Below are positions 15,339 through 18,300 of a stretch of 64,000 nt of DNA, in pieces. Origin of the DNA: Catajapyx aquilonaris. Taxonomy: Eukaryota. Numbering within the stretch: position 1 is the first letter of the stretch; the number at the start of each line of letters is the position of its first letter. The stretch covers positions 1-64,000 of the forward strand of contig JYFJ02000454.1 in the NCBI GenBank assembly GCA_000934665.2. Reading direction: 5' to 3'. A model generated the notes under the pieces. The model was given only the letters and a program-made list of their open reading frames with translations. It made no database searches and was not told the DNA's origin. Both the position numbers and the translations under genes were made by a program.

Positions 15339-18300
15339 CTGTTTGGAGTATTTAAAAAAGGATTACAAATAGTCAGTGGAGACATAAAGTGAAGCACTAA
15401 GAGGATACTGGCCCATTGACTATAATAGTACTCTACAGCTGGATGTTTATTATTTGCTTCTAACAAGATATTAATTGCTTAATTAATTCCTCAGTGCTTC
15501 AATCATTACATGCTCTTCACAATAACGACTTGATACCAAGTGTGACAACTGCCCAAATTGTCATTGAGCCTTTCACATTCAAGTACATAACAAAATTTAT
15601 GGCAATTTAGTCACTACATGGTTTCAGATCTACCCCAGATCTAACACTTATTCAACATGCAACATTGCTGCCTTCAGTCGACAATTCCGAGCAATGAAAG
15701 TCACACCTACCTGCATTTATACTCATGCATTTGCACAATCATGCACCGAAAGCAGAAGCGATATGAATGACACACACATGCACCACATTTTGCCAATTTG
15801 CATGACCAACATCTCGTCATATCCTGATAAATTTTTGCGAAGTCTGTGGTACCAGTCTAGTTTACAATACATTTGATCTGAACACACACTGGTACCAATA
15901 TGCAACATTAGCCGAAACCCATGTCGTTAATCTGTTAACGTCACTACTACCCCCGAGTTTCAAGCTTGAGAAAAATTGTGCATTATTTCCAGTGTTGGTT
16001 AATTCCAGGCAAAAAAAGCACTTGACGACTCCTTCCGAAATGTACAGCGGGCATCAGAGAGGACAGTGGTAATAAAAGCAGCAGACACTCTTGTCACACC
16101 AAATGATTTACCATGCTGGAGGGAGGAGTCAGGAAAGGATGCACACTCAAAACTCAAAAAATTACAAGGGAGAATCAAAGGGGAAAAAAATAACCAAACA
16201 AAAATTCTCCATCCCCTTCACCCCTCGGGAAAAAGAGTGTCTAAATGCCAAACATGTTTTTCCCCCTACCTGCAACATATCCACCACCAACACGATCCTG
16301 CCACCACCTCTCTCCATCGGTCAATCGCGCCTCTCTTTTTATCCCAGCTGGTTAAAGGTGACCCAGTGGGGGCGGATGAGTATTGGGGCGTAATAGGGGT
16401 TCTGGGAAGGGGGGCGCCTGTCGGGGGAACAAGAGACAGAGCGATAGACAGAAAGAAAAAAAATACCGACACGCACAGGAAGATTGGAGAGAGAGAGAGA
16501 GTTTTCTCTAAAAAATAAATAAAGAGTGCCAACATTGCTGCTATGTCCTTACTTTGCCTGAAATTTAAACCACTGGCGCCTAACTGTACACAAGAAGCAA
16601 GGCAGCGGAAAATGGAAAAAAACAAGACCACAACTCACAAGCGAGTGCGTGCGAATGGGAATCCACAAACTCACCTGTTTTGTGCGATCTTCCGAAGGGT
16701 CTCTGGGCAGCGGATAAGTTTGTCCAGGGTTTTGACTATGGATGCGAAGGTGGGCCTGTGTGACCGTTCCTTCTGCCAGCAGTCCAGCATTAGCTGGTAG
16801 ATGGCCTCTGGACAGTCCATAGGTGCGGGCAATCTATAGCCCTTCTCTATAGCCTTGATCACATCTTGGTTGCTCCAGTTCCAGTAAGGCCGTTCCCCAT
16901 ATGACATCACCTCCCAGCAAACTATGCCAAAACTCCATACATCAGATGCTGAGGTGAACTTGCGGAAGGCTATTGCTTCAGGTGCAGTCCACCGAACAGG
17001 GATCTTCCCACCCTGAAGGATTAAAGGTACAAGTCAGGCATAGTCAGGGAGAGGGATCACTCAACTTCTGAAAAAATTCTGGACTGAGCATTGTTTCATT
17101 ATGCACACAAATTTTCCAACAGACACATTTCAACTGATTGCAAGTTTGACTTAAAAATCTATTAATATTGTCCTACCAGGAAATTATACTTCAGCTACGT
17201 AAAAGACACAAATTCTCTCAAAGTACTGACCCTTGTGGTGTATGCGCCTTCTGTGGTGCTCTCAATTTCTCGACTGAGCCCAAAGTCTGCAATCTTGCAA
17301 ACCAGCTGCGCGTTCACTAGCACATTCCTGGCAGCCAGGTCCCGGTGCACGTAGTTCATTTCTGAGAGGTACTGCATCCCAGACGCTATTCCCCTCAGCA
17401 TGCCCACCAGCTGGATCACTTGGAACTTTCCGTCATTTGCCTGTGTACATGAGAAACTCATAATTACTCCTGGTGTCCATTGAACTGTACCAATTACCAT
17501 TCATTTTTTGGCAACTCACCCTGAGGAAAGTGTCCAAGGAGCCATTCTCCATGTACTCAGTTATGATCATGACTGGATTGGACTTGGTAACCACTCCTTG
17601 AAGAAAGATGACATTTGGATGCTCAAACTGCCCCATGATGCTGGCCTCCGTGAGGAAGTCCATCCTGGCCTTGTCGGAGCTTCCCGGCTTCAGGGTCTTG
17701 ATGGCCACGTCGATCTCTTGCCTCCCCGGCAGCTTAAGCTTCCCTCTGCAGACGTCCCCAAACTCCCCTCCGCCGATGATGGCCTCGATGGTGATGCAGG
17801 AGGCGTCGATCTCGCGGGCAAACTCTCTCACTGCCTGGTTCGGGTCTTCATAGGTGTGAGGGTCGATGTAGGTGCGGGCCACGCCCATGTGGGTGAAGAG
17901 AGGCGTTGTCACTGTGGTGAAGAAAAGACAAAGAGTTAGTGGACATCTAGCCAACCTTACAATTCTGTTTGACTATGCTGACAGGGATGAATGGGGTTCA
18001 TTAAAATTAGGTGCAAAATTTGCATGCGTGCATTTCTCCACGATACTTCTCACTACTACAGCACAATCAAAAATATGATACACGATAGTTCATACAACAG
18101 CAATGTACATGTGTGTTATTAAATTGTGAGTAATGGCTAACTGTATAAATTTTGGACAGTTATAAAGTAGACCCTTGGTCTTCCAAATTCAAATGAAAAA
18201 ATGTAGACAATTTTCTTTTACCACATATGATGTTCAAACACTGAAATAGTAAAATGAACACAATAATGACAGAGAGATTCAAAATATTTTGTGAGGCCAT

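Follow-up and report, generated by a model that had tools for sequence, protein, structure and literature searches.

Insects use one Eph gene for axon guidance and boundary formation, against 14 in vertebrates, and a natural truncated isoform is known for the vertebrate receptors in EphA7-T1. Among the short signals carried by cytoplasmic tails, NPxY serves both as a ligand of PTB domains and as an endocytic signal, and ligands of Shc-type PTB domains require a hydrophobic or aromatic residue five positions before the tyrosine. WxxF ligands of the AP-2 alpha-ear, of which stonin 2 is one, have an acidic flank or a terminal carboxylate beside the phenylalanine; the examples known to us are accessory proteins of the cytosol that either have acidic residues beside the motif or carry it at the very end, and we know of no cargo receptor that binds the alpha-ear in this way. 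Poison exons are typically conserved at the nucleotide level including their flanks and without a coding signature, and the common rule for nonsense-mediated decay (NMD) places the stop more than 50–55 nt upstream of the last junction. In published work, deletion of the SAM domain of EphA2 led to more oligomerisation and autophosphorylation (PMC5364462), repulsion by EphB2 required clathrin as well as Numb, a PTB adaptor (PMC5836524), the C-terminal WxxF of NECAP 1 was a high-affinity ligand of the sandwich site of the AP-2 alpha-ear (PMC3794858), and the structure of a synaptojanin WVXF peptide was solved with the same domain (PMC3285160).

We analysed a 64,000-nt stretch of the genome of Catajapyx aquilonaris (contig JYFJ02000454.1, positions 1–64,000; hereafter the window), which carries an Eph gene on its minus strand. 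The account that we favour as probable is that the last intron of this sole Eph gene holds an ancient conserved alternative exon, inclusion of which would yield a kinase-intact receptor with a 26-residue tail in place of the SAM domain and PDZ motif, the tail likely being a docking site for adaptors. The evidence is good for the exon and weak for the mechanism. A literature search that covered few subscription journals and no supplements returned no paper describing the tail isoform, and a search for a SAM-less EphA10 isoform likewise returned none; in the parts available, a cricket transcriptome paper (PMC6040699) and a review of wiring receptors (PMC10084454) mention the SAM-bearing form of Eph only. 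The tail isoform is already present, unnamed, in the automatic annotations of many insects, and spliced C-terminal Eph variants are a known class.

The Eph gene and the alternative exon in its last intron

A single Eph gene was found in the assembly, which contains one match to the ephrin ligand-binding domain (PF01404, at 23510–23950) and one close kinase match, the next kinase match being 50% identical. The features of the locus are listed in Table 1. The tyrosine kinase domain is finished before the alternative junction, with positions 164–258 of the 258-position PF07714 model falling on residues 2–96 of the last kinase exon, and its catalytic motifs are intact as read in the 963-residue model. 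The last intron spans 16674–15339 of the minus strand (1336 nt), and the SAM exon ends in a TAG stop at 15073–15071.

Table 1. Features of the Eph locus, in positions of the window
Feature	Position	Strand	Basis
Host Eph gene; 12 exons, open 963-residue frame, signal-peptide exon not in the model	15071..32511	minus	exon model
Last kinase exon; completes the kinase domain, ends in phase 2 (AG/gtgagt)	16675..17012	minus	PF07714 and boundaries
Pyrimidine tract without AG, and CAG acceptor, leading into the alternative exon	16418..16504	minus	88-nt AG-free gap, 77% pyrimidine
Alternative exon, 148 nt; 1 base to finish a split codon, then 25 codons and TAA, then 69 nt of untranslated sequence	16270..16417	minus	
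Coding part; proline-rich start, NPYY (16401–16390), WVTF (16365–16354) four residues ahead of the stop	16342..16416	minus	translation
TAA stop of the alternative tail	16339..16341	minus	
5′ splice site CAG/GTAGGG, 69 nt past the stop	16264..16272	minus	best-scoring GT site
Sole AATAAA of the last intron, 887 nt past the alternative stop; candidate intronic polyadenylation signal	15446..15451	minus	
SAM exon, GFLV end; predicted 3′ UTR upon inclusion of the alternative exon	15071..15338	minus	PF07647, PF00536; phase check
Nearest AATAAA past the normal stop; its use would make the 3′ UTR ~2.3 kb long	12750..12755	minus	

A preliminary description of this DNA, made from the letters of the window alone, had proposed that the last intron hides an exon behind a pyrimidine tract and CAG acceptor, with a 26-residue in-phase frame, a stop and a donor beyond it, and each of these elements was recovered. 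The acceptor CAG (16420–16418, its AG at 16419–16418) marks the end of an AG-free stretch of 88 nt, and 16504–16421 is 77% pyrimidine, compared with 53% for the whole intron and 67% for the acceptor of the SAM exon. Among the 72 AG sites of the intron this AG-free gap is the second longest, the longest (91 nt, at 15722) being just 53% pyrimidine, and among the 70 AG sites that were scored its pyrimidine fraction is the second highest. The frame then runs in the required phase to the TAA at 16341–16339, and the GT site that follows was the best when 5′ splice sites were scored by base frequencies.

Joining of the kinase exon at 16675 to the acceptor at 16417 would place the alternative tail directly behind the intact kinase, and the TAA would end the protein there, with loss of the SAM domain and PDZ motif. 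The SAM domain and its PDZ-type end (FLV) would thus be present in the skipping form and missing from the predicted inclusion form. From the conserved donor described below we infer that the alternative exon is joined to the SAM exon, which would turn into 3′ UTR. Three other outcomes were ruled out: inclusion in frame, since codon reading and a donor scan found no phase-2 GT donor in the alternative exon of the window; read-through of the stop into SAM, given a second stop five codons on and an exon length that is not divisible by three; and a new PDZ end, since the tail in the window terminates in glycine. No Pfam family matched the 25-residue frame, and a search of the ESM Atlas with the tail gave no usable match.

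Orthologous tails in annotated insect proteins

The preliminary description had suggested a comparison of the peptide with arthropod Eph loci, and orthologous tails or exons were found in many insects. The tail of a damselfly isoform (P0177, with the same tail in P0182; RRPPPQNPYYTPTVVVQPQWVAFNQLG) matches 16422–16342 with 64% identity in a tblastn search of the 64-kb window, and its E value of 9e-7 places the alternative exon beyond chance. The protein set was built from 120 proteins of a search with the kinase exon, followed by cluster look-ups and two tail-centred searches. Among 349 proteins with an anchorable kinase end (isoforms of one species counted separately, chains unanchored by the pattern omitted), 202 pass straight to SAM, 81 end in the orthologous tail (one of them a genomic read-through), 18 carry the tail in frame ahead of SAM, and 48 have other endings, mostly fragments or intron read-through.

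The tail stands at the identical junction in the damselflies Hetaerina (XP_071440461.1) and Ischnura (XP_046388595.1), which share the FNQLG end with the window, in locusts (Schistocerca XP_049780950.1 and others), in the whitefly Bemisia (XP_072156194.1), in the honey bee Apis (XP_016771476.1) and Tribolium (XP_008196146.1), in the leafhoppers Macrosteles and Homalodisca and the psyllid Cacopsylla (three UniRef entries), and in wasps, ants and many beetles. These isoform records are gene-model or assembly translations; RefSeq isoform models of this kind rest on RNA alignments, and the Cacopsylla entries presumably come from transcriptome assembly, no contig being shown for them. In the 27 short proteins that the fragment search yielded, kinase spliced to the tail was seen in no Logan or JGI contig. 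On the strength of the annotated isoforms of relatives, we infer that the exon is also spliced in Catajapyx, and the kinase-intact isoform that swaps SAM and PDZ for a new tail, as first proposed from the window, is well supported by these orthologues and by the codon-level signature given below.

The tails are between 21 and about 290 residues long, and at every length the frame is open. Leafhoppers, whitefly and psyllid have 26 residues and locusts 21, without the last motif; Hymenoptera have 84–110 and beetles about 90–290, and the central part, about 8 residues at its shortest, exceeds 250 in some relatives without closing the frame. The genera Tenebrio, Tribolium, Onthophagus and Agrilus have the exon annotated in two ways, as a terminal exon and as an in-frame one ahead of SAM. 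The terminal form ends, for example, in FNNM and the in-frame form reads FNNI then STNPL before SAM, and these codons, deduced from protein records, would put the beetle stop inside a phase-2 GT donor. Neither this splicing of beetles, which keeps the SAM domain, nor the WVxF motif of the tail appeared in the preliminary description.

The tail was missing among the 15 listed of the 28 members of the cockroach and termite cluster and in all three Neocloeon isoforms, and it was not seen in thrips (0/15 listed), the true-bug cluster (0/15 listed of 27), planthoppers (0/8), moths and butterflies (0/15 listed of 136), or the tick, scorpion and spider members listed. Absence from gene models is no proof of real absence. 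Since the tail is missing from termite and Neocloeon models despite an intact exon in termite- and mayfly-type loci, the isoform may be rare.

The orthologous exon in genomic DNA

Metagenome contigs were scanned with a degenerate pattern, which returned 14 loci, and in 13 of them the alternative exon lies behind an AG acceptor. The remaining locus, L013, was rejected as a homologue, having no acceptor, no WVxF and 54% GC, and is a chance match. Two of the 13 are mayfly-type, a label taken from L002, whose SAM exon is identical to Neocloeon proteins; eight are termite-type, after L015, whose SAM exon is identical to termite proteins and to which the other loci were joined by near identity; and three are ant-type, after L003, whose peptide is identical to an Atta isoform. 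The YAG acceptor has the same position in mayfly- and termite-type loci and lies one codon earlier in the ant type.

A rival reading is that the exon, although real in relatives, has become a disused relic in this organism. That its use here is deduced from relatives would leave room for such a loss, but in the window nothing is damaged in the acceptor, the frame, the two motifs, the stop position or the donor, and the 64% peptide identity to the damselfly tail has persisted across a split older than winged insects, so that we give this reading almost no weight.

Selection on the peptide and the meaning of the donor

Over 20 anchored codons, of which the first 11 are biased by the search pattern, synonymous differences per site were 0.50–1.17 and non-synonymous differences 0.06–0.24. 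In the nine-codon WVxF block, which lies outside the search pattern, the differences at first, second and third codon positions were 0/0/4 between the window and the mayfly type, 1/0/4 between the window and the termite type, 1/0/3 between the mayfly and termite types, and 4/1/6–7 against the ant type. The flanking intron and the untranslated part of the exon showed 20–38% identity across the compared loci. Third-position bias, unconserved flanks and a frame that remains open despite growth of the middle argue that the exon is selected as a protein. The alternative exon is real, and its conservation extends from Catajapyx to mayflies, damselflies, termites and bugs and on to ants and beetles.

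The same pattern bears on a second proposal of the preliminary description, a pure 148-nt poison exon that tunes Eph dosage and whose peptide is irrelevant. A stop 69 nt ahead of a conserved donor and a length that is not a multiple of three would suit it, but besides the codon pattern and the flanks it would have to accommodate frames that stay open over as many as about 290 codons in beetles and 84–110 in Hymenoptera and still carry the terminal motif in phase, and in-frame inclusion ahead of SAM in four beetle genera; we regard it as very improbable.

The donor itself calls for an explanation within the favoured account of a coding tail. The best 5′ splice-like site, AG/GTAG(G/A)G, lies 69 nt past the stop in the window, 69 nt in the mayfly type and 64 nt in the termite type, with unconserved sequence in between, and the chance of such a donor in a span of 16 nt is ~1.7% per lineage. 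It is kept in the window, in 2/2 mayfly-type loci and in 7/8 termite-type loci (the eighth contig ends at the stop), and it was found in 0/3 ant-type loci. This donor had been predicted from the window alone, before any comparison, and only later was it found to be conserved.

One possibility is that the exon has a dual use, in which the tail is functional and the donor 64–69 nt past the stop at the same time marks the transcript for NMD, so that little of the short form accumulates, or it escapes only where NMD is weak or intronic polyadenylation is used. The stop lies beyond the 50–55-nt mark, and the isoform is missing from termite and Neocloeon gene models though the exon is intact. Against this, inclusion adds just ~340 nt to a 3′ UTR of ~2.3 kb, the constant distance from stop to donor may reflect exon size, and damselflies, whose tail ends as in the window, have the isoform annotated; in addition, according to one report, recognition of premature stops in cultured Drosophila cells is independent of splice junctions (PMC1756896). 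NMD may limit the tail isoform, but the dual use as a whole seems to us rather doubtful.

Less likely still is that the exon is an alternative last exon, polyadenylated inside the intron (AATAAA at 15451) with the downstream donor rarely used, an arrangement with the same protein outcome. An AATAAA follows the alternative stop not only in the window but also in the mayfly type (142 nt) and the termite type (about 1080 nt), and the beetle exon, with its stop apparently in the donor, is a composite that can be read as terminal or in frame. The ant-type loci, which have several AATAAA or ATTAAA signals within 16–600 nt, appear to be terminal in this sense. However, the AATAAA positions are unconserved among the window, mayfly type and termite type, that of the window lies downstream of the conserved donor, and retention of the donor in these lineages is not expected of an unused site.

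Age of the splice switch

In a tree of 14 full-length Eph proteins nine winged insects formed a clade that excluded the window gene (100/97), and the window and the insects were grouped against one millipede and three chelicerates (100/99). This tree omits 18 of the 32 rows of a quick tree, which places the window gene identically, and its taxa beyond the window are winged insects, a millipede and chelicerates. Grouping of the window Eph with mayflies was rejected (p-AU 0.009). The branching of the window gene outside winged insects suggests that the splice switch likely predates them.

Tail motifs and candidate functions

The best-fixed element of the tail is WVxF rather than NPxY. WVxF is present in 47 of 52 distinct tails and lies 2–4 residues from the C-terminus in 78 of the 81 stop-ending tails, the three others being Schistocerca tails without it; in termite-type loci, 8 residues separate it from the end. 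NPYY is found in 29 of the 52 distinct tails and NPYF in 13, the other 10 having another sequence or none. The preliminary description had put its emphasis on NPYY, and this core does hold in the window and in all non-beetle tails, but most beetles have F, I, P or L as its fourth residue and WVxF is the more invariant of the two. Acidic residues (D/E) stand near WVxF in 11 of 30 distinct ends and are absent there in the window. Five residues before the second tyrosine the window has S and its non-beetle relatives P or A.

Two endocytic-type motifs on one short tail are, by resemblance, the most economical reading of this arrangement. NPxY would engage a PTB adaptor (Numb or Dab) and the terminal WVxF the AP-2 alpha-ear, with quicker internalisation and faster removal of the receptor from the surface. 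AP-2 alpha is encoded in the genome (L018). Since acidic flanks are mostly missing, as is the usual residue upstream of NPxY, the endocytic reading is one of resemblance, and we put it forward only tentatively. Readings of the terminal motif as a PP1 RVxF or LIR site were ruled out by consensus: the V is always preceded by W, and Hemiptera have no FxxL. Complex prediction without alignments for the AP-2 alpha-ear (P0336, 360–596) and the damselfly tail (P0177, 1012–1043) gave a score of 0.00, which we take as no verdict from a tool unproven on peptides. P0177 modelled by AlphaFold with an alignment of 14 rows had a mean pLDDT of 42.7, and the model is uninformative on the tail, as even the kinase was below 50.

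The same isoform could instead use its tail as a signalling or scaffolding dock, in which the kinase phosphorylates NPYY for PTB proteins of the Shc, Dok or IRS type or for SH2 proteins, the proline-rich start binds SH3 or WW domains, and WVxF binds another partner or folds onto the kinase. YY or YF follows NP in 42/52 distinct tails, right behind an intact kinase, R-x-x-P-x-x-P occurs in damselfly, locust, termite-type, whitefly and psyllid tails, and 19/30 distinct WVxF ends are without acidic flanks. On the other side, the S, P or A five before the second tyrosine differs from the bulky hydrophobic residue of Shc-type ligands, the SH3-like pattern is broken by S in the window and by A in ants and bees, and WVxF stays C-terminal over linkers of varied length, as terminal docking motifs do. 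We hold such a dock to be possible, with as much reserve as the endocytic reading.

Under either use, the tail would recruit adaptor proteins through its conserved motifs, and loss of the SAM domain would likely alter clustering and basal kinase activity. Given the raised oligomerisation and autophosphorylation seen on SAM loss in EphA2 (PMC5364462), the tail isoform would likely be easier to activate and would have no PDZ anchor. A more speculative synthesis, which we would rate a little below the endocytic reading on which it builds, is a switch older than winged insects by which one gene makes a SAM/PDZ form for adhesion and, for repulsion, a form that is quickly internalised through its own clathrin-recruiting tail, with a third form carrying both in beetles and with NMD setting the dose.

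Comparison with known systems

An exon that swaps the tail and has persisted for hundreds of millions of years is a possible route to two signalling outputs from one Eph gene, and it offers a natural test of an old question, the purpose of the Eph SAM domain. Gene models of the bee, Tribolium and locusts include the isoform, which makes it experimentally accessible at once; if WVxF binds AP-2, it would provide a direct, spliced-in link between Eph repulsion and clathrin endocytosis.

The closest counterparts are the annotated SAM-less insect Eph isoforms, which have the same post-kinase junction, NPY start and WVxF end as the tail of the window; the window gene differs in branching outside winged insects and in being without the in-frame donor of beetles. 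Engineered SAM-deleted EphA2 likewise combines an intact kinase with the absence of SAM (PMC5364462), but there a vertebrate paralogue was truncated artificially and received no new tail, and the effect of SAM loss may vary among Ephs. In EphA10s, a natural truncated vertebrate isoform, splicing also alters the signalling capacity of one Eph gene (PMC13259870); truncated vertebrate Ephs lose the kinase or are soluble, whereas the predicted form of the window keeps the kinase and swaps only the C-terminal module. With cassette exons coupled to NMD, the alternative exon shares a stop that lies in frame and over 55 nt ahead of a conserved donor, and it differs from them in its conservation at the amino-acid level and its unconserved flanks. 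The tail has the NPYY core in common with NPxY ligands of PTB domains, but it has no conserved aromatic or hydrophobic residue upstream, a requirement of such ligands, and in beetles the fourth position is often F. Finally, the AP-2 alpha-ear ligands NECAP 1 and synaptojanin 170 have a WVxF core near the C-terminus, as does the tail, which differs from known WxxF ligands in lying on a receptor, 2–4 residues from the end and mostly without acidic residues.

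Structure of the Eph gene

The first fibronectin exon is followed by a GC-AG intron, which the open Eph frame requires. A tblastn search of 31 kb of upstream sequence (window above 32511) did not locate the signal-peptide exon. At the exon following the transmembrane exon, a tandem acceptor could add or remove one codon.

Features of the Eph gene and stop-free frames in the window
Feature	Position	Strand	Remarks
GC-AG intron	20498-20283	minus	donor AAG|gcgagt
Tandem acceptor cagcag	19874-19871	minus	
Juxtamembrane exon	19541-19524	minus	18 nt; encodes GLVVTY
Juxtamembrane exon	18978-18928	minus	51 nt
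Stop-free frame	1402-2283	minus	
Stop-free frame	2719-3435	minus	
Stop-free frame	4085-4978	minus	
Stop-free frame	13156-13785	plus	
Stop-free frame	49334-49969	plus	
Stop-free frame	47318-47956	minus	

Possible neighbouring gene, and locus L016

None of the six stop-free frames of 210-298 codons in the window had a Pfam match; the region 1400-5000 may contain exons of a neighbouring gene. At locus L016, an intronless-looking P-loop frame (1-963) that resembles the Fe-S scaffold NUBP1/Nbp35 lies tail to tail with a gamma-adaptin-like gene, directly next to that gene's 3′ end.

The alternative exon and probable further ones

In the alternative exon between the kinase and SAM exons, the stretch after the stop (window 16340-16270, minus strand) is untranslated and G/T-rich with TGG/GGTGG repeats, as it is in metagenome loci L002 and L004, and despite this common composition the three lineages do not align here. 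The G/T-rich part is possibly a site for a splicing regulator. Inside the exon, Q-W-V codons create a phase-2 donor, CA|GTGGGT, in L002, L006, L010 and L015, of which L002 is mayfly-type and L015 termite-type; this donor is absent from the window's exon, which has CAC at that place. In the Cloeon gene model CAB3360959.1, splicing from the Q-W-V donor places an in-frame insert of 18 residues ahead of SAM.

The two small juxtamembrane exons preserve the frame and have good splice sites. Both correspond to stretches in which insect Eph isoforms differ from one another, and, judged by this correspondence, they are likely to be additional conserved alternative exons of Eph.
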